Positions 30,776 to 38,914 of a DNA stretch of 64,000 bases are shown here, piece after piece. The notes under the pieces are model-generated. The model made no database searches. It saw nothing but the letters and a program-made list of their open reading frames with translations, and was not told the origin of the DNA. Every line of letters begins with the position of its first letter. Positions within the stretch are counted from its first letter, which is position 1. The position numbers were made by a program, and so were the translations under genes. This DNA is from Myxococcales bacterium. GTDB lineage: Bacteria; Myxococcota_A; Polyangia; Nannocystales; Nannocystaceae. The stretch spans positions 1,213,828 to 1,277,827 of the forward strand of contig JACKDW010000001.1 in NCBI GenBank assembly GCA_020633295.1, written 5' to 3'.

Positions 30776-31440
30776 GCGACACCCGCCCGCGCGGCATGAC
30801 CCTGCTCAACGACGCGCTCACCGACTACATCGAGGCCCACGCGCTGCCCGAGTCCGAGCTGTTCGCGCGCATGCGTGAAGAGACCTATCGCGACCTCGAC
30901 TCGCCGCAGATGCAAGTCGGCCGCGTCGAGGGCTCGCTCCTGCGCCTGCTCGTGCAGATCAGCGGCGCCCGGCGGGTGCTCGAGATCGGCACCTTCAGCG
31001 GCTACTCCGGGCTCTCGATGGCGATGGCGCTCCCCGACGACGGGCGCGTGATCACCTGCGACGTCGACCCGGTCGCCACGTCGGTGGCGCGCCGCTACTT
31101 CGACGAGAGCGGACACGGGCACAAGATCGAGATCAAGCTCGGGCCCGCGCTCGAGACCATCGCCGCGCTCGCCGAGCAGGGGGCGCGCTTTGACCTCGTG
31201 TTCATCGACGCGGACAAGACCAACTACAGCGAGTACTTCGACGCGGTGCTCCCGCTGCTGCCGATCGGCGGCCTGATCCTCGCCGACAACACGCTGTGGA
31301 GCGGCAAGGTCATCGACCCGCAGGCCGACTCCGACCACGCGCTCGTCGCCTACAACAAGAAGGTCCGCGACGACCCGCGCGTCGAGCAGGTGCTGCTCTC
31401 GGTCCGCGACGGCGTCATGCTCGCGCGCAAGATCGCGTGA
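30772..31440 (+). CDS. Class I SAM-dependent O-methyltransferase (caffeoyl-CoA O-methyltransferase-like)
   Basis: ATG 30772 overlapping the upstream stop (ATGA). SAM-binding VLEIGTFSGYSGLSMA and DLVFIDADKTNY. Confidence 0.85.
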   Translation: MSDTRPRGMTLLNDALTDYIEAHALPESELFARMREETYRDLDSPQMQVGRVEGSLLRLLVQISGARRVLEIGTFSGYSGLSMAMALPDDGRVITCDVDPVATSVARRYFDESGHGHKIEIKLGPALETIAALAEQGARFDLVFIDADKTNYSEYFDAVLPLLPIGGLILADNTLWSGKVIDPQADSDHALVAYNKKVRDDPRVEQVLLSVRDGVMLARKIA

Positions 31441-31687
31441 TATGGGGCATCAGCGTCGCCCGCGCGGCTCGCCGGCCCGCGCTGGCGCGTCGTCGCTTCG
31501 GCATCGTCGAGCCGCGCGCGTTGACAATTTGTCACGCGCGCGGGCACGGACGCGCCAGCCTGCGGCGGAGATCATGCGCTACGCCGGTTTCGCCTTTGAG
31601 TTTGTACGCGCCCCTTGTGGCACCCTGGTTGCATTGGGCATAAACCGTACAGACCGGCGCGTGCCTGCGCGCGTGGGATCGAGCAGC

Positions 31688-33733
31688 ATGCGTCGCGCGC
31701 GACAGCCGAACCAAATCCCCCCCTACCTCGTGGCCGCCGCGGTCGCGGGCCTGATCGGGCTCGTGACCCCGGCGGCGCACGCGGATCCAGGTCAGACCTC
31801 GGTCATCCCGACCGCCGACAACTTCACGATCCGCTACCGGCTGATCGACAAGGACGACAACAACGCGCGCATCCGGCAGATGGACAGCCGGGACATGCGT
31901 CAGTTCTTCAACCAGGCGCGCTGCGTGTGCGGCGAGCTGGTCGAGGCCGAGATCCTGCTGCAGAAGAGCCAGGGCGAGGCCTACGACAACGCGCAGATCT
32001 CGTCCTACGTCGGCACCAACTGCGACACCGCCGAGGCCATGCAGTTCGGCCAGTTCCGGGCCTGCGGCAAGTTCAACTCGGCGAACACCTCGACGTGGTT
32101 GACGAGCTACTTCGCCCGCTTCGCGCCCGTCTGGCTCGTCAACGGCGTCGACCCGAGCAGCGGCGACGACCGCAACCCCAGCACCGCGATCCCCTTCGGC
32201 ACCTGCGGCTCGAGCGAGGGTCAGGGCGGCATCTGGATGTGCGCCGAGAGCAACGGCTCGGCCAACTGCCAGTCCGAAGAGTTCATCATCACCGGCGCGA
32301 CCAACATCAACACGCAGAACACCGAGTCGCCGCAGGGCATCAGCTACGACTTTCGCCCGCCGACGACCGCGCCTGACGAGAGCACGTTCCGCTTCGAGGT
32401 CGGAGACGGCGCCGTGCAGATCAGCTGGTCGCTGCTGACGCCGGGCGACATCAACGGCTACCGGATCCTGTGCGCCGAGTCGGACACCGGCGCGCCGGCG
32501 CTCGCCGACAGCCCGGTCAAGACCCGCGACGAGCTGCGCTTCATTCGCCCCGACGGCACCAACTACTACACGCCCGGCAACCTGTGCCCGTCGGACGTGC
32601 CGGTGTGCGGCAACGGGGTGCTCGAGGGCACCGAGGAGTGCGACGACGGCGACGCCAACAACAACAGCGCCGCCTGCACCTCGCTGTGCACCGTCGCCTA
32701 CTGCGGCGACGGCTTCGTCGAGGCGGGCGCCGAGCAGTGTGACGGCGGCTACGACTCGAACAACCCCGACGGCGCCCTGGTCACCGAGACATGTGACGCG
32801 GCCTGCGCGACCATCAACCGCTGCGGGAACGGGATCATCGACGACGGCGAGGCCTGCGACGACGGCGACCTCAACGGCACCAACATGAGCGAGTGCACCG
32901 CGTTCTGCTCCTCGCCGCTGTGCGGCGGCGGCGGGACCACGACGGGCACCGACACGGACACCGGCACGGACACAGACACGGGCACCACCGGCGACACGGA
33001 CACCGGCACCACCGGCAACCCGCTGATGCCGGGCGCGACCACGGGCGGCACCGGCGACGCCATCCCCTACGAGTGCGACCCCGACGTCGACGCCGACTGC
33101 CTGCCGACCTGCCTGCTCAACGTGTGCGGCGACGGCTTCGTCGGCGGCGACGAGGAGTGCGACGACGGCAACACGCTCAGCGACGACGACTGCATCACCA
33201 TCGATCTCGCGGAGACCGACGAGAGCGCGCAGCGCAAGTGCGTCGCCAACGTGTGCGGCGACGGCTTCCTCGGGCCCACCGAGTCGTGTGATGACGGCGC
33301 GGACAACAGCTTCACCGGCGCCTGCACCCCCGAGTGCCGGGCCAACGACGTGCTCTCCCTGCCGAGCGGCGGCATCGAGAGCCTCGACTGGTCCTACGTC
33401 TGCTCCGAGCACCTGGCCAACACGACCACGAGCCACCGCGTCTCCGGGCTCGACAACAGCAAGACCTACGACATCATGGTGGTCGCCTACGACCTGTTCG
33501 GGAACCCGCTGCCGGTCGCCTACCGCAAGGGCATCACGCCGCGCGAGACCCTCGACTGGTGGGAGCTGTGCGAGCAAGACGGCACCTGCGGGGCCTCCGG
33601 CTTCTGTAACATCAGCGACCGCGTGGAGGGTCGCGAGGGGCGCGGGCGCACCGGGCTCGGCCTGCTCGGCCTGCTCGGCCTGTTCAGTCTGCTCGGCGTG
33701 ACCACGCGGATCCGTCGCCGGAGGACCACGTGA
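31688..33733 (+). CDS. Secreted protein with Myxococcus-type cysteine-rich repeats and a MYXO-CTERM-like sorting tail
   Basis: ATG 31688. Signal peptide ...AAHA|DPG. Repeated CGNGxxExxEECDDG / CGDGFV modules. C-terminus GASGFCNIS...GLGLLGLLGLFSLLGVTTRIRRRRTT (Gly/Cys motif, hydrophobic segment, Arg cluster). Also a Gly/Thr/Asp linker (TGTDTDTGTDTDTGTTGDTDTGTTG). Confidence 0.8.
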   Translation: MRRARQPNQIPPYLVAAAVAGLIGLVTPAAHADPGQTSVIPTADNFTIRYRLIDKDDNNARIRQMDSRDMRQFFNQARCVCGELVEAEILLQKSQGEAYDNAQISSYVGTNCDTAEAMQFGQFRACGKFNSANTSTWLTSYFARFAPVWLVNGVDPSSGDDRNPSTAIPFGTCGSSEGQGGIWMCAESNGSANCQSEEFIITGATNINTQNTESPQGISYDFRPPTTAPDESTFRFEVGDGAVQISWSLLTPGDINGYRILCAESDTGAPALADSPVKTRDELRFIRPDGTNYYTPGNLCPSDVPVCGNGVLEGTEECDDGDANNNSAACTSLCTVAYCGDGFVEAGAEQCDGGYDSNNPDGALVTETCDAACATINRCGNGIIDDGEACDDGDLNGTNMSECTAFCSSPLCGGGGTTTGTDTDTGTDTDTGTTGDTDTGTTGNPLMPGATTGGTGDAIPYECDPDVDADCLPTCLLNVCGDGFVGGDEECDDGNTLSDDDCITIDLAETDESAQRKCVANVCGDGFLGPTESCDDGADNSFTGACTPECRANDVLSLPSGGIESLDWSYVCSEHLANTTTSHRVSGLDNSKTYDIMVVAYDLFGNPLPVAYRKGITPRETLDWWELCEQDGTCGASGFCNISDRVEGREGRGRTGLGLLGLLGLFSLLGVTTRIRRRRTT

Positions 33734-34848
33734 TCGTCGGCGCGCTCGTCCACGTCAGCGCGATCGCCCCGCTCGCGCTCACGCTCGCGCAGGAGCCCGC
33801 TCCAGCGGACGCGCCCGCCGAGGACGCGGTCGTCGAGGAGCCGGCCACCGCGCCCGCCACCGTCGACCCGGAGCAGCGCGTGCGCGTCGTGCCGGACGGC
33901 CCGGATCCCTGGGCGCCCGACCCGCCGCCGGACCCCGACGCGCCGCCCGCCGTGCCCACCCAGGAGGCCGCCGAGCGCCAGACCCGTCCGCCCGAGGTCG
34001 GCGAGGTGCTCGCCGACGAGGCGCCCGCCAACAACCGCGAGGCTCGCAAGGACGAGCGCAAGCGCAAGCGCGAGCAGAAGTCGGGCTACGCCAAGTACGA
34101 GTCGCCGCAGCGCTTCGCGGTCGAGCTCAAGTTCGGCCCCTACCTGCCGAACATCGACCGCAACTACACGGGCAACCGGCAGTTCGGCTCGTACGACCTG
34201 ATCTTCGGGAAGACCGACGCGATCGGCAACACCGTCGACTCGCCGAGCAAGGCCTTCATGTTCGGCCTCGGCTTCGAGTGGCAGTTCTTCAACCCCGGCC
34301 GCATCGGCCCGCTCGGCCTCGGCTTCACCTTCAGCTTCTTCCGCGACCGCGCCAACGCCATCTACAAGGATTATCAGGCGATCTACGCGGAGAGCGGCAC
34401 CGTCACCAAGGACGACCTGCTCCCCGGCGACACCTCGATCCGCAGCACCGCCGACTCCATCGTGTTCAACGGCATCCCGCTCGCGCTGCAGCTCGTGTTC
34501 CGCTTCGAGCTGCTCGCCGATCGCCTGCGCGTGCCGATCGTGCCCTACGCCAAGGGCGGCGTCGCCTACGCGTTCTGGTGGTCGAAGGGCTCCGACGGCG
34601 AGATCTCGGTGAACGCGACGGGGCAGCCCGCGCGCGGCGGCTCGTGGGGCTACCAGATCAACGCCGGCGGCATGCTGCGGCTCGACTTCCTCGAGGGCGA
34701 GAGCCACACGCTCGATCGCCAGCTCGGCATCAACCACACGTACCTGTTCGGCGAGTTCCAGTTCTCGCAGATCGACAACTTCGGTCAGGCTGACGCGGTG
34801 TCCATGGGCGACACGACCTTCTTCGTCGGCCTGGCGATGGAGTTCTGA
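33730..34848 (+). CDS. Predicted outer-membrane beta-barrel protein with a Pro/Ala/Glu-rich N-terminal region
   Basis: GTG 33730 overlapping the upstream stop (GTGA). Alternating aromatic/hydrophilic strands and C-terminal ...FFVGLAMEF (terminal Phe). Confidence 0.6.
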   Translation: MIVGALVHVSAIAPLALTLAQEPAPADAPAEDAVVEEPATAPATVDPEQRVRVVPDGPDPWAPDPPPDPDAPPAVPTQEAAERQTRPPEVGEVLADEAPANNREARKDERKRKREQKSGYAKYESPQRFAVELKFGPYLPNIDRNYTGNRQFGSYDLIFGKTDAIGNTVDSPSKAFMFGLGFEWQFFNPGRIGPLGLGFTFSFFRDRANAIYKDYQAIYAESGTVTKDDLLPGDTSIRSTADSIVFNGIPLALQLVFRFELLADRLRVPIVPYAKGGVAYAFWWSKGSDGEISVNATGQPARGGSWGYQINAGGMLRLDFLEGESHTLDRQLGINHTYLFGEFQFSQIDNFGQADAVSMGDTTFFVGLAMEF

Positions 34849-34875
34849 TCGCGCGCCCCGGAGGCGGGGCGCGGG

Positions 34876-35562
34876 TCAAGGACGCCCGCTCGCGCCGCGT
34901 CGCGCGAGCACCACGGACACGCCGAGCATCGCCTCGAGGTGGTGCGCCGGGCCGGCGAGCCCCGGCGCGATCGTGTCGCGCAGCTCAGCGCGCAGCGCCA
35001 GCGACTCGGTGGCGTAGAGCGTGAGCCCGCAGCCGAGGTGCGCGCCGCTGGCGACCGCCGCGCCGACCCCGGGGCCCGAACTCGACAGGAGCGCCACGCC
35101 CGCGAGCAGCACCGGCGACAGGCGCAGCGGGAGCTGGAGCCGCAGCGCCGCGCGGGTCGAGTACGCCATCGTGTGCAGCCGCAGCGCCGCGGTCTGCGTC
35201 GGGATCACGCCCGCGCCGAGCTCGATCGCGACCGCGCGCAGCGGCGCGTACGAGCCCTGAACGCCGATCGTCGCGGACGCGGCGACCAGCGGCGCGGGCG
35301 CGTAGTCGCGGCTGACGAGCGCGTGATCCTGGGGCGGCAGGAACGCGCCGAACCAGACGCCGAGCTCGAGCTGGTGACAGTCGGGCCGGTGACGCGCGAA
35401 CCACCCGCGCACACGACCTGAATCCTCCAGCCAATTGCGACACAGCGTACCGGCTGTTCGTCCGGCGGCGAGCGTCTCGCTCGCGCTCGCGCTCTCGCGC
35501 TCGCGCGACGCGGGCGCAGGCTCGCTCGCGACGAGCGAGAACACCGTCAAGGTCCAGAGCAT
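34876..35562 (-). CDS. Hypothetical protein, possibly a secreted or outer-membrane beta-rich protein
   Basis: ATG (complement) at 35562 (MLWTLTVFSLVASEPAPA...). Balanced composition compared with the overlapping Arg-rich frames. Confidence 0.4.
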   Translation of the reverse strand: MLWTLTVFSLVASEPAPASRERESASASETLAAGRTAGTLCRNWLEDSGRVRGWFARHRPDCHQLELGVWFGAFLPPQDHALVSRDYAPAPLVAASATIGVQGSYAPLRAVAIELGAGVIPTQTAALRLHTMAYSTRAALRLQLPLRLSPVLLAGVALLSSSGPGVGAAVASGAHLGCGLTLYATESLALRAELRDTIAPGLAGPAHHLEAMLGVSVVLARRGASGRP

Positions 35563-35868
35563 GGAGATCACGCGGCGCTCGGCCGCCGCGAGGAACACTG
35601 TCAGCGACGGAGACGACAGCGCCGTCACGGTTTGAAGACATCGCGGAGACGTCGACTCGCGCGACGTCTCTGACTTGTCTCAAAAGACAGCTCGTGTTTG
35701 CGCCCGCGCGCTGTATCACGCGCGCGCGGTTGAAGTCGCGATCCCCGGCGCCGCTCGGGCACTCGCGCGCGCCTCGTGGAGCGGTCGCGACAACCACGCG
35801 AGACGTCGGCGTCGCCCGAGAACGCGCCGCGCCGCGTGCTAGGCTGTTCGCTTACCGTGGGTGACGGG

Positions 35869-37590
35869 ATGCACATGCGCCCCCTCCAATCCGGGAGGCG
35901 GGCGGCGGTCGAGCATGTTCAAGAGCTCGTCGATCCGCGCGTCGAGCCCCACGACGCCAACCAGCTCGAGCTCAAGCTCGGCTACGTCATCAAGCCCGGC
36001 GAGCGCCGCCAGCGCTACCTCATCGAGACCTACATGTTCATCCCCAAGACGCTGGGGATCGATCGACACAGCTACAACGCGAGCCGCTTCTACGCCGACA
36101 CCGCCGCGTTCCTGCGCCTGCGCACGCCCCACGTCTCGCTCGAGGCGCTGGCGACCGTCGGCAGGGCCAACGCGTGGTTCGAACAGCTGCACTCCGGGCT
36201 CGACGCGCGCGCGCGCATGCGTGAGCGCGACATCAGGCGACTCGCGCGGCGCGTGAAGATCCTCGGCTGCGTGTACCGCTCGGCGCTCCGCGACGACGCG
36301 CGCTCGCTCCGGCAGCAGCTCACGAGCGCGCCGGCGCCCGATCCCCTCGCCGAGGGCCGCATGCAGGAGACGACCGCGCGGCGGATCCGTCGCTTCGTCC
36401 GCAACATCGAGCGCGCGCTCCGGCGCCTGCGCGCCGTCGACGGGCGCTGCCTCGCGCGCGGCGACGGCGACCTGCTCTGCGACTCGTGGCGCGCGGTCGA
36501 CGAGTACAGCGCGCTGATCGCCGAGGACGTGTGCAAGGACGTCATCGTCGCGCTCGACGATCGGGCGTCGCGCTCGCCCGTCGTCCACCCCGACCTCCTC
36601 GACGCGCGCGCGCGGCTCGTGCGGGCCGCCGTCGACGCCCACCAGTATCGCCGCAGCCGCGGCTACCGCAGCCAGCTCATCGCCGGCGAGAGCAACGAGG
36701 AGCTGCCCCACTGGCGGCGGACGATCAAGCGCATCGTGTTCAGCGCGCTGTACCTCGACGTGCGCCACGAGGAGGTCGGGCGGCTCGCGTATGACCTCGT
36801 GGGCGCGGTCGCGGCGATGATCGCGATGGCGTTCGCCGTCACCGTCAGCCTGCTCGCGCAGCTCGAGCTCGACATCTTCAGCGGCGCCTTCGTCGCGATC
36901 ATGATCGTCTCCTACATGATCAAGGATCGGCTCAAGGACTGGGGCAAGCGCTACGGCGGCCGGCACCTCGGGCGGCTGCTCCCGGACACGCTCGTGCGCG
37001 TGCACGACAACGAGGGCGACCGCGCGCTCGGGCAGTGCCGCGAGTCCTTCTACATGCTGCAGGTCGACGAGGTCGACGACGAGATCAGGCGCTCACGGCA
37101 GTCGCGTCGCGCGAGCTCGATCGAGCGGCTCGGCAAGCCCGAGGTCGTCATCCGCTACTCCAAGGACGTGACGCTCCACTCGCAGCCGCTGCGCGACGAG
37201 CTCGCCGGCCTCGAGGGGCTGCACGACATCATCCGCTTCAACCTCGGGCACCTGCGCGACCGCATGGACGCGCCGCGCGAGGACCACCCGCTCATCGACC
37301 CGAACACGGGGGAGATCCAGATCATCCCCTGCGCGCGCGTCTATCACATCAACATCATCCTGCGCATGACCGTCGGGCGGGGCAAGCACGCGCGCAGCCG
37401 GGTCGAGCGCGTGCGCGTCGTCATGGACCAGCGCGGGATCAAGCGCGTCGAGTTCCTCGACCGCCACGGCAAGCAGCTGGTCTGCAACCACGAGGGCGGC
37501 GCGCCGTTCCAGGACATTACGAACCTCTCGCTCCCCGCGATCCCGCGCGCGCAGCTCGAGGACTCCGGCGCGGCCTCGGCGGCGCGCTGA
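35869..37590 (+). CDS. Hypothetical protein with two central transmembrane helices
   Basis: ATG 35869 (MHMRP...). Hydrophobic segments VGAVAAMIAMAFAVTVSLLAQL and FSGAFVAIMIVSYMI. No recognisable catalytic motif. Immediately upstream of the ACAD/ACP/PKS operon. Confidence 0.55.
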   Translation: MHMRPLQSGRRAAVEHVQELVDPRVEPHDANQLELKLGYVIKPGERRQRYLIETYMFIPKTLGIDRHSYNASRFYADTAAFLRLRTPHVSLEALATVGRANAWFEQLHSGLDARARMRERDIRRLARRVKILGCVYRSALRDDARSLRQQLTSAPAPDPLAEGRMQETTARRIRRFVRNIERALRRLRAVDGRCLARGDGDLLCDSWRAVDEYSALIAEDVCKDVIVALDDRASRSPVVHPDLLDARARLVRAAVDAHQYRRSRGYRSQLIAGESNEELPHWRRTIKRIVFSALYLDVRHEEVGRLAYDLVGAVAAMIAMAFAVTVSLLAQLELDIFSGAFVAIMIVSYMIKDRLKDWGKRYGGRHLGRLLPDTLVRVHDNEGDRALGQCRESFYMLQVDEVDDEIRRSRQSRRASSIERLGKPEVVIRYSKDVTLHSQPLRDELAGLEGLHDIIRFNLGHLRDRMDAPREDHPLIDPNTGEIQIIPCARVYHINIILRMTVGRGKHARSRVERVRVVMDQRGIKRVEFLDRHGKQLVCNHEGGAPFQDITNLSLPAIPRAQLEDSGAASAAR

Positions 37591-37774: not shown

Positions 37775-38914
37775 ATGGACTTCAGCTGGACAGACGAGCA
37801 ATCGACGCTCCACGAGCAGGCGCTCGAGTTCGCGCGCGCCCGGCTGCGCGGGCGCGACGACGACGACGACCGCAGCTTCGCGCGCGCGACCTGGCGCGCC
37901 CTCGGCGACTTCGGGGCGCTCGGCGCCTGCCTGCCCCGCGCCCACGGCGGGCTCGGGCTCGACGCGCTGACCACCGCGCGCGTCGTCGAGGGGCTCGGTC
38001 ACGGCGCGCGCGAGCTCGGCCTCGTGTTCTCGGCCTGCGCCCACCTGCTCGCCTGCGCCGTCCCCGTCGCCGAGCACGGGAGCGCCCAGCTGCAGCGCGA
38101 GGTGCTGCCCGCGCTCGCCTCGGGCGAGCAGATCGGCGCCAACGCGATCACCGAGGCCGGCGCCGGCTCTGACGTGTTCTCGCTGCGGACCACGGCCCGC
38201 CGCGACGGCGACGACTACGTGCTCGACGGCGCGAAGAGCTACGTCACCAACGGCCCCGTCGCCGATCAGCTCCTCGTCTACGCCTCCACCAACCCCGCGC
38301 ACGGCTACCTGGGCATCAGCGCGTTCCTCGTCGACGCGCGCCAGGCCGGCGTCACGCGCGGCGAGCCGTTCCACAAGACCGGCCTCGGGAGCTCGCCGAT
38401 CTGCCCTGTGTACCTCCGAGACGTGCGCGTGCCCGGCTACCGCCGGCTCGGCGCCGAGGGCGGCGGCGCGGCGATCTTCCAGCGCTCGATGGCGTGGGAG
38501 CGCGCCTGCCTGTTCGCGGCCTTCGTCGGCGCGATGGCGCGTGACCTCGAGCTCTGCCTCGAGCACGCGCGCGGCCGCCAGCAGTTCCGCAAGCCGATCG
38601 GGCGCCACCAAGCGGTCGCGCACCGCCTCGCGGACATGAAGCTCCGCCTCGAGGGCGCGCGCCTGCTGCTGTACCGCGCGTGCTGGCGGCTCGACCGCGG
38701 CGAGCTCGCGGCGCTCGACATCAGCCTCGCCAAGCTCGCGGTCAGCGAGGCCGCGGTCCAGAGCGGGCTCGACGTCATCCGCCTCCACGGCGGCCTCGGC
38801 TACATGTCCGAGACCGGCCTCGACAACGGCCTGCGCGACGCGCTCGGCAGCCTGATCTTCTCGGGGACCTCCGAGATCCAGCGCGACCTGATCGCGCGCG
38901 GCCTCGGGCTCTAG
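37775..38914 (+). CDS. Acyl-CoA dehydrogenase family protein
   Basis: ATG 37775. ACAD N-terminal region FSWTDEQSTLHEQALEFAR, middle-domain ANAITEAGAGSDVFSLRTTARRDGDDYVLDGAKSYVTNGP, and C-terminal helical domain with QQFRKPIGRHQAVAHRLADM. Confidence 0.9.
   Translation: MDFSWTDEQSTLHEQALEFARARLRGRDDDDDRSFARATWRALGDFGALGACLPRAHGGLGLDALTTARVVEGLGHGARELGLVFSACAHLLACAVPVAEHGSAQLQREVLPALASGEQIGANAITEAGAGSDVFSLRTTARRDGDDYVLDGAKSYVTNGPVADQLLVYASTNPAHGYLGISAFLVDARQAGVTRGEPFHKTGLGSSPICPVYLRDVRVPGYRRLGAEGGGAAIFQRSMAWERACLFAAFVGAMARDLELCLEHARGRQQFRKPIGRHQAVAHRLADMKLRLEGARLLLYRACWRLDRGELAALDISLAKLAVSEAAVQSGLDVIRLHGGLGYMSETGLDNGLRDALGSLIFSGTSEIQRDLIARGLGL

Follow-up and report, generated by a model that had tools for sequence, protein, structure and literature searches.

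A translationally coupled adhesin and outer-membrane barrel gene pair in a Nannocystaceae myxobacterium, probably a divergent version of sgmI/MXAN_2562

Why should the gene of a putative surface protein share its last nucleotides with the gene of an outer-membrane barrel? The question is raised by a 64-kb window (the whole stretch of DNA analysed here) of a Nannocystaceae myxobacterium, with a local base composition of 72% GC, in which two genes overlap on the + strand: 31688-33733, whose product we call P1, and 33730-34848, whose product we call P2. An earlier sequence-only reading had described P1 as a Cys-rich repeat protein with a MYXO-CTERM-type tail, translationally coupled to the gene of a beta-barrel protein, and every feature that it listed was found where it had been placed. 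We propose, with a probability of roughly 70%, that the two genes form an operon, probably sigma-54-dependent, which encodes a cell-surface adhesin and its outer-membrane partner and is the Nannocystaceae version of the Myxococcus xanthus pair sgmI (MXAN_2561)/MXAN_2562. In M. xanthus, SgmI (MXAN_2561) is implicated in type IV pilus-dependent motility, and MXAN_2562 lies downstream of sgmI and is apparently co-transcribed with it, insertions in both genes giving similar transposon sequencing (Tn-seq) fitness profiles during development (10.64898/2026.08.28.747804). The identity of the pair and the pairing itself are well supported; what P2 does for P1 we infer. As NCBIfam models exist for both partners (NF045522 and NF040596), and a 2026 preprint deals with the M. 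xanthus pair, the window holds a divergent copy of an already named pair: the module is real, and its kind is not new.

The identity of P2 was given by NF040596 ("MXAN_2562 family outer membrane beta-barrel protein"), which it matches with 209.7 bits (cutoff 100, E 3.5e-62) over amino acids (aa) 128-372 and the whole profile; 323 homologues were found, and a Pfam scan of P2 returned no family. In an AlphaFold2 model built with 23 homologues, eight long strands lie within aa 128-371, with predicted local confidence (pLDDT) values mostly of ~80-95, and P2 is accordingly modelled as an 8-stranded barrel of the OmpA/OmpW/PagL-like type. Profile and model together bear out the earlier prediction of an outer-membrane beta-barrel, and the C-terminal Phe noted along with that prediction is present and invariant across the family. 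The Pro/Ala/Glu-rich N-terminal extension reported at the same time is also real: it is 105 aa long, and Pro, Ala, Glu and Asp make up 59% of it. The model gives aa 1-125 low to moderate confidence (block means 43-78, with pLDDT mostly <60 in the extension) and only short helices there; a Lys/Arg-rich helix falls at aa 103-118. The extension is the least conserved part of P2 (0.35) and is specific to Nannocystaceae, the homologues of other Polyangia and of Sorangium having an ordinary signal peptide followed by the barrel. A semi-conserved motif, P-[ST]-x-E-A-x-x-R-Q, lies within it at 33949-33987 (P2 aa 74-86), with P76 and A80 at least 90% conserved; it is modelled as a small helix and might serve to bind a partner in the periplasm. 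Matches of the extension to TolA and GltJ (E 0.02-0.04) were dismissed as compositional.

For P1, the longest open reading frame (ORF) in its frame opens at 31442, but the supported start is the ATG at 31688, because the orthologues start there and the conserved promoter described below sits between the two positions. From this ATG the protein begins MRRARQ and continues as MRRARQPNQIPPYLVAAAVAGLIGLVTPAAHA with DP after the predicted cleavage site, thus showing the typical signal peptide (RRAR, a hydrophobic core, then AHA before the D) that the sequence-only reading had seen. Its family was delimited among the 120 P1 matches listed by alignment over the conserved N- and C-terminal domains, a criterion that yielded 22 orthologues and hence, with P1, an alignment of 23 sequences (A2); the remaining matches listed had the repeats alone in common with P1. 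Comparison by hhalign of A2 with A3, the SgmI-like proteins whose genes precede the barrel gene in Sorangium and other Polyangia, gave a probability of 99.9 (E 1.3e-33) with query positions 11-664 on template positions 15-413, that is, over the full length. Full-length P1 gave no match at E<=1 to NF045522 ("MXAN_2561 family MYXO-CTERM-anchored protein"); its C-terminal 131 aa gave 25.1 bits (E 1.1e-5), and the profile is matched by 21 of the 23 members of A2. A member of A3 (L066) reached 98.4 bits over profile positions 20-304. The conserved core of P1, which consists of an N-terminal Cys-containing domain and an FN3 domain, is homologous to M. xanthus SgmI/MXAN_2561. The invariant Cys of the N-terminal domain, from the orthologue alignment, are C79, C81, C112, C126, C173, C185 and C194, and a Pfam search of aa 40-221 found no family match.

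The Cys-rich repeats, by which P1 had first been described, are a variable, lineage-specific insert and not a trait that defines the family. They are certainly present, and the check proposed for them came out clearly: TIGR02232 scores 54.6 bits on P1 (cutoff 20.8) in five stretches, well above chance, and Pfam DUF4215 (PF13948) scores 69.2 bits (cutoff 27), also in five stretches. The repeat segment was found by tblastn in only 11 related loci, and in the alignment other orthologues carry a low-complexity Thr/Asp/Gly-rich linker at this position. The insert, which is poorly modelled (AlphaFold2 pLDDT <50 for aa 303-560), appears to split the FN3 domain of P1. Three observations indicate this: Pfam fn3 (PF00041, gathering score 25 bits) reaches only 22.9 bits on intact P1, over profile positions 2-42; once the insert is cut out in silico, 36.2 bits are reached by a single alignment that crosses the junction to position 69; and FN3 sequences of the PDB match the two halves separately. 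In nearly all loci, tblastn places the second half immediately before the barrel gene.

The association of the two genes was examined by scanning species-representative genomes with the barrel profile, retaining the best 80 loci (Nannocystaceae, other Polyangia and Sorangium) and locating upstream SgmI-like ORFs by tblastn and hidden Markov model (HMM) searches. In 71 of the 80 loci such an ORF, on the same strand, immediately precedes the barrel gene. Eight of the other nine have <600 nt of upstream DNA and the ninth (L075) has 1,440 nt; the adhesin-barrel pairing is kept in 71 of the 71 loci in which upstream DNA was sufficient to judge. Flanking genes are common to the closest relatives only, and it is thus the pair that forms the conserved unit. 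The sequence-only reading had named two ways in which its proposal of a partner pair could fail, a downstream protein not predicted as a barrel and an adjacency not conserved in related genomes, and the results speak for the pair on both. A clustering of ORFs over the loci put adhesins and barrels into one cluster and was rejected: there is no fused ORF in the 80 loci, and low-complexity matches are the likely cause.

The overlap of the two genes is equally real. The P1 stop codon TGA (33731-33733) overlaps the P2 GTG (33730-33732) as GTGA, and no other start codon precedes the GTG at 33730 in the open frame of P2. A 4-nt RTGA overlap is kept in 67 loci (63 of 69 under a nearest-start criterion). 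Five nucleotides before the GTG stands a GGAGG, built from the CGG AGG codons of the Arg cluster in the tail of P1, so that the same codons supply the sorting tag and the ribosome-binding sequence. Of the 67 RTGA loci, a Shine-Dalgarno core (at least 4 nt) stands at this place in 62, and GGAGG itself in 37.

Still closer association was met outside these loci. An exhaustive HMM search with the barrel profile against 1.84 billion representative proteins gave 942 matches at E<=1e-10, and 69 of the 145 newly returned best representative matches are single polypeptides that join adhesin, tag and barrel. At the junction the order is Cys motif, helix, Arg cluster (with CFI-box-CTERM instead in 13 cases, including P0376, P0407 and P0465) and a second signal-like hydrophobic stretch, so placed that the Arg cluster would double as the positive N-region of the signal sequence of the barrel. 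The five fusions examined match both NCBIfam models, with 54-85 bits for NF045522 and 214-243 bits for NF040596; one fusion was confirmed on a 760-kb contig, and another comes from a Myxococcales metagenome-assembled genome. Examples are P0373, P0375, P0383, P0390 and P0396, and L081:3001-4944. The claim of a dedicated partner pair is further supported by these natural fusions. In Nannocystaceae the short hydrophobic N-terminus of P2 (33730-33789) is a signal peptide, MIVGALVHVSAIAPLALTLA in the window, that has neither Lys nor Arg, also in the homologues from this family; those of Sorangium and other Polyangia have ordinary, positively charged signal peptides. The Lys/Arg-free signal peptide could be a relic of a fused ancestor.

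The tag of the adhesin is less constant than the pairing. In a Polyangia subgroup (L056, L057, L059, L061 and L064; e.g. L057:4193-5887) the C-terminus of the SgmI-like protein is formed by CFI-box-CTERM (86-94 bits, cutoff 40), which starts at the conserved Cys, and the gene retains its GTGA overlap with that of an MXAN_2562-family barrel (212 bits). As these relatives keep the barrel, the latter goes with the adhesin, and not with the MYXO-CTERM tag or with any one sorting pathway.

The tail of P1 is a MYXO-CTERM signal by its architecture and not by its HMM. Its last 59 residues read DWWELCEQDGTCGASGFC-NISDRVEGREGRGRTG-LGLLGLLGLFSLLGV-TT-RIRRRR-TT: a Cys motif (CEQDGTCGASGFC), a charged spacer of 16 residues, unusual between Cys and helix, the helix LGLLGLLGLFSLLGV (aa 657-671) and an Arg cluster (aa 674-679). 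W625, C628, C634, G635, G638 and C640 are invariant in A2. For the putative assignment we rely on the tripartite arrangement of Cys motif, helix and Arg cluster, the protein having a signal peptide as well, on the invariance of C628, C634 and C640, and on orthologues that pass the MYXO-CTERM model TIGR03901 (cutoff 20 bits): the tail of L016 scores 35 bits and passes, those of L002 and L024 score 18.6 and 15.3 bits, and 7 of the 23 family members match at E<=0.01. The tail of TraA (GGAFCCG...RPRRPAR) is comparable, has a spacer of 13 residues and is cleaved by MrtX (PMC11980579).

Upstream of P1, two elements stand in the classic layout of an enhancer-dependent promoter, and judging from their sequence the operon is probably under sigma-54 control. 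The sigma-54-type element, whose GG and GC doublets stand ten bases apart, is the only such match on both strands of the window. It also precedes the SgmI-like gene in 49 of 63 loci, for a background expectation of 0.0026 per 380 nt, and in the closest relative (L001) the leader around it is identical over long stretches. The second element is a palindrome, the sole TGACA-N3-TGTCA in the window even with one mismatch allowed. With at most one mismatch it recurs in 47 of 51 loci (background 0.016 per 220 nt), its distance upstream from the sigma-54 element being mostly 65-120 nt and reaching ~160 nt, and it would function as an upstream activating sequence. Both elements are seen in most Nannocystaceae loci and, diverged, in Sorangium loci and some of those from other Polyangia; the Sorangium loci have TGGTACGAGCTGTGCT together with TGACAACTTGTCA. 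The fused locus L081 shows a sigma-54-like site with 2 mismatches only and no palindrome, neither being above chance. No enhancer-binding protein signature (GAFTGA and similar) was found in the 64 kb, and a literature search for a regulator that binds the palindrome returned nothing useful. In 31300-35100, an Rfam scan gave no family match, and a scan for sigma-70 promoters and terminators was uninformative.

How might such a pair work? P1 would leave the cytoplasm through Sec and stay in the inner membrane by means of its C-terminal helix, the RRRR remaining in the cytoplasm; it would then be lipidated on the conserved Cys of CGxxGFC, cut by a myxosortase, and delivered by type II secretion to the cell surface, with the lipid as its anchor there, as in the MYXO-CTERM pathway (PMC11980579). 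This pathway can no longer be called poorly understood, as it was in the sequence-only reading: that remark is dated, the myxosortase MrtX and the dependence on type II secretion having been published (PMC11980579). At the surface, the Cys-rich repeats and the Thr/Gly linker might form a disulfide-stiffened stalk that loops out of the FN3 domain. Ribosomes that end P1 would reinitiate at the GTGA by means of the GGAGG in the Arg codons, giving roughly equal amounts of P1 and P2, and P2 would insert in the outer membrane and form a complex with P1 as its membrane-embedded dock, as TraB is thought to do for TraA. By this analogy, a one-to-one outer-membrane complex of P1 and P2, with the barrel as the dock, is the arrangement that we favour. 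The M. xanthus genetics would suggest as its likely role a surface adhesion connected with type IV pilus motility, the matrix or development.

Several of our results weigh against this reading, and they concern its parts unequally. The isolated tail of P1 gives no match to TIGR03901 even at E<=10; the MYXO-CTERM claim of the sequence-only reading therefore stands for the tripartite tail, the invariant Cys and the orthologues, and fails for the tail of P1 on the very model that had been proposed as its check. The equivalog cutoff of NF045522, 150 bits, is unreached by P1, by nine loci, by L033, L010 and L004, by L057 and by the five fusion proteins, the best score being the 98.4 bits of L066. 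As all scores lie below 150, P1 is by the NCBI rule a distant, enlarged homologue of the SgmI family and not an orthologue. The proposed link to MXAN_2561/MXAN_2562 is drawn from the NCBIfam models and one preprint, and we note that Myxococcus is absent among the best 80 loci of the genome scan, and that the best 120 proteins listed from a profile search seeded with distant barrels all come from Polyangia or Sorangium. No report of physical interaction, localisation or lipidation for this family was found in the literature searched. Finally, the conservation of P2 does not fall where a simple surface-docking model would have it. With the topology inferred from the even number of strands and the C-terminal Phe, conservation outside the strands is highest in the predicted periplasmic turns T2 (0.88) and T3 (0.78), and the outer loops L2 (0.37) and L3 (0.51) are the least conserved loops of the barrel, L1 being fairly conserved (0.68). 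Conserved turns and variable L2 and L3 are a mismatch with that model.

This last pattern would fit a reading in which P1 is never processed, its C-terminal helix being a permanent inner-membrane anchor, and P1 is a periplasmic protein that bridges to the Pro-rich extension of P2. The conserved face of the barrel is predicted to be periplasmic, the 105-aa extension is of the kind that spans the periplasm, the spacer NISDRVEGREGRGRTG between Cys and helix is long and highly charged, and the tail is missed by TIGR03901. Against it, C628, C634 and C640 are invariant and orthologue tails pass TIGR03901; TraA, whose 13-residue spacer is comparable, is cleaved by MrtX (PMC11980579); and FN3 domains with Cys-rich repeat stalks are typical of surface proteins. 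Moreover, the homologues of Sorangium and other Polyangia do without the Pro-rich extension, which thus cannot be the core of the mechanism. We regard this reading as improbable.

Just as improbable, in our view, is that the barrel is a dedicated device for export or assembly, which takes the adhesin through the outer membrane, or flips it across, in the manner of Slam, two-partner or autotransporter-type systems. Co-translation and the frequent fusion into one polypeptide do resemble autotransporters and two-partner systems, and the persistence of the pairing through the swap from MYXO-CTERM to CFI-box-CTERM would fit an export that is independent of the tag. However, eight modelled strands would leave a pore far too narrow for a folded, disulfide-rich passenger of 60 kDa, known translocator barrels having 12-16 strands. 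In the fusions, the barrel is preceded by a cytoplasmic Arg loop and by another signal-like segment, which implies that the two parts are exported separately, and type II secretion is the route of the MYXO-CTERM proteins tested to date (PMC11980579). The least probable of the three alternatives, by a little, is that the barrel is an outer-membrane enzyme of PagL/PagP-like lipid or lipopolysaccharide modification, merely co-expressed with the adhesin: the non-enzymatic barrels OprF, OmpA, NspA and OmpW score equally, the likeness to PagL is at the level of the fold only (14% identity, and no catalytic His-x-Ser arrangement around H336 in GINHTY), the invariant polar residues of strand 7 alternate in the alignment with hydrophobic ones as in the lumen lining of small barrels, and an enzyme would leave unexplained why the barrel is strictly paired, and fused, with just one adhesin family.

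One might speculate further, and only tentatively, that MXAN_2562-type barrels are obligate one-to-one co-receptors of SgmI-type adhesins across the Myxococcota, either fused to them (and then cut apart by the sorting protease and signal peptidase) or coupled by 4 nt, under one conserved circuit of sigma-54 and an enhancer-binding protein, with the Pro-rich tail of Nannocystaceae tying the adhesin to the periplasm or the inner membrane. We would sooner doubt this generalisation than accept it; if true, it would amount to a general TraAB-like design that wires lipid-anchored surface proteins to the cell envelope. The DNA of the window itself contributes a lineage-specific variant only. The features of the family that were not found in the literature searched are the fusions, the coupling through Arg codons, the promoter with its sigma-54 element and palindrome, the swap of tags and the split FN3 domain. 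Of the surface proteins that have been linked with social motility and development in myxobacteria, SgmI and MXAN_2562 belong to the least understood, and the present results offer handles for experiment: on the regulator of the operon, on the need of the adhesin for the barrel in its display, and on why the lipid-anchored surface proteins of this phylum often have a barrel partner (TraAB, MXAN_5598). The coordinates of all the features are collected in Table 1.

Table 1. Features of the P1/P2 operon in the window, in order of position
Feature	Positions	Strand	Basis or remark
Palindrome TGACAATTTGTCA, candidate upstream activating sequence for an enhancer-binding protein	31522..31534	+	96 nt upstream of the sigma-54 element
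Sigma-54-type promoter (predicted), TGGCAC-N5-TTGCA (-24 GG / -12 GC), TGGCACCCTGGTTGCA	31618..31633	+	55 nt before the P1 ATG; fits consensus and spacing
P1, SgmI-family surface adhesin precursor, 681 aa	31688..33733, including stop	+	ORF, orthologue alignment, hhalign, NF045522
P1 signal peptide, aa 1-32, predicted cleavage between AHA and D	31688..31783	+	Read from sequence; position conserved in alignment
P1 conserved N-terminal domain, aa 40-222	31805..32353	+	AlphaFold2 pLDDT ~83-93; seven invariant Cys
First half of split FN3, aa 223-302	32354..32593	+	
Variable insert, aa 303-560: three Cys-rich repeats, Thr/Gly/Asp-rich linker (aa 413-455), two further repeats	32594..33367	+	TIGR02232, DUF4215
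Second half of split FN3, aa 561-622	33368..33553	+	pLDDT ~94; NF045522 profile positions 214-271 align here
MYXO-CTERM-type C-terminal sorting signal	33554..33730	+	Invariant residues of A2, orthologue tails
Translational coupling element: GGAGG, 5-nt spacer, GTGA	33720..33733	+	Sequence
P2, MXAN_2562-family outer-membrane protein, 372 aa	33730..34848, including stop	+	NF040596
P2 Pro/Ala/Glu/Asp-rich extension, aa 21-125	33790..34104	+	Composition
P2 8-stranded beta-barrel domain (modelled), aa 126-372, C-terminal Phe	34105..34845	+	

The surroundings of the pair are little conserved. Convergent with P2, a 250-aa ORF on the - strand (34876-35628) ends 27 nt past the P2 stop; it has a weak match to TIGR04565, a myxobacterial outer-membrane barrel domain (22 bits, E 1e-4, below cutoff), and is conserved beside the pair only in L001. 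It is followed at 35776-37590 (+ strand) by a 604-aa ORF with hydrophobic segments and no Pfam or NCBIfam family, present among the loci only in L001 (79% identity), and at 37775-38914 by an ORF that looks, by eye, like an acyl-CoA dehydrogenase. A gene judged by eye to be RNase R-like lies ~3 kb downstream of the barrel in 39 loci (e.g. L001:9800-11809, - strand), no neighbour being otherwise conserved across the locus set; it was not seen beside the pair of the window, in which no search for RNase R was run. A 681-aa antisense ORF (31532-33577, - strand) covers most of P1, and several further long ORFs overlap the region; they are taken to be shadow ORFs typical of DNA with this base composition.

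Set beside SgmI/MXAN_2562, the pair of the window has the same order, an adhesin with a C-terminal Cys/helix/Arg tag and then a barrel gene; P2 passes the HMM of the barrel family, and P1 is homologous by profile-profile comparison and matches NF045522 in its FN3/tail region. P1 differs from SgmI in being about twice as long as the 304-position family profile, with ~260 aa of Cys-rich and Thr/Gly insert inside the FN3 domain, and P2 differs from MXAN_2562 in its 105-aa extension and its Lys/Arg-free signal peptide, both specific to Nannocystaceae. The P2 barrel also resembles the small 8-stranded barrels (OmpA N-domain, OprF, OmpW, NspA and PagL), from which it is set apart by sequence identities of only 10-19% and by predicted periplasmic turns of unusual length and conservation that contain helices; when PDB sequences were searched by profile, no relative was returned. 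CFI-box-CTERM proteins (NF041770) have their tag at the same conserved Cys, in the Polyangia subgroup and in the 13 fusions, whereas the tail of P1 is of the Cys/helix/Arg type and not a CFIATAAYGS box. In M. xanthus, MXAN_5598 is a fusion of an adhesin, an internal MYXO-CTERM, a barrel and an OmpA domain (PMC11980579). Many relatives of our pair likewise consist of one polypeptide, in which the sorting tag is internal and stands between adhesin and barrel, but the parts are separate genes in the window, and the barrel is of a different family and lacks the OmpA domain. A parallel in design is TraA/TraB, the receptor pair for outer-membrane exchange in M. xanthus, the genes of which overlap by four bases (PMC3325183): here again a head domain, a stalk of Cys-rich repeats and a MYXO-CTERM are encoded upstream of a gene, overlapping by 4 bases, for an outer-membrane partner (PMC3325183). 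According to the Pfam and NCBIfam scans, P1 has neither the PA14 domain nor the TIGR04201 repeats of TraA, and P2 has no OmpA peptidoglycan-binding domain like that of TraB. The likeness is one of design, and not of descent.

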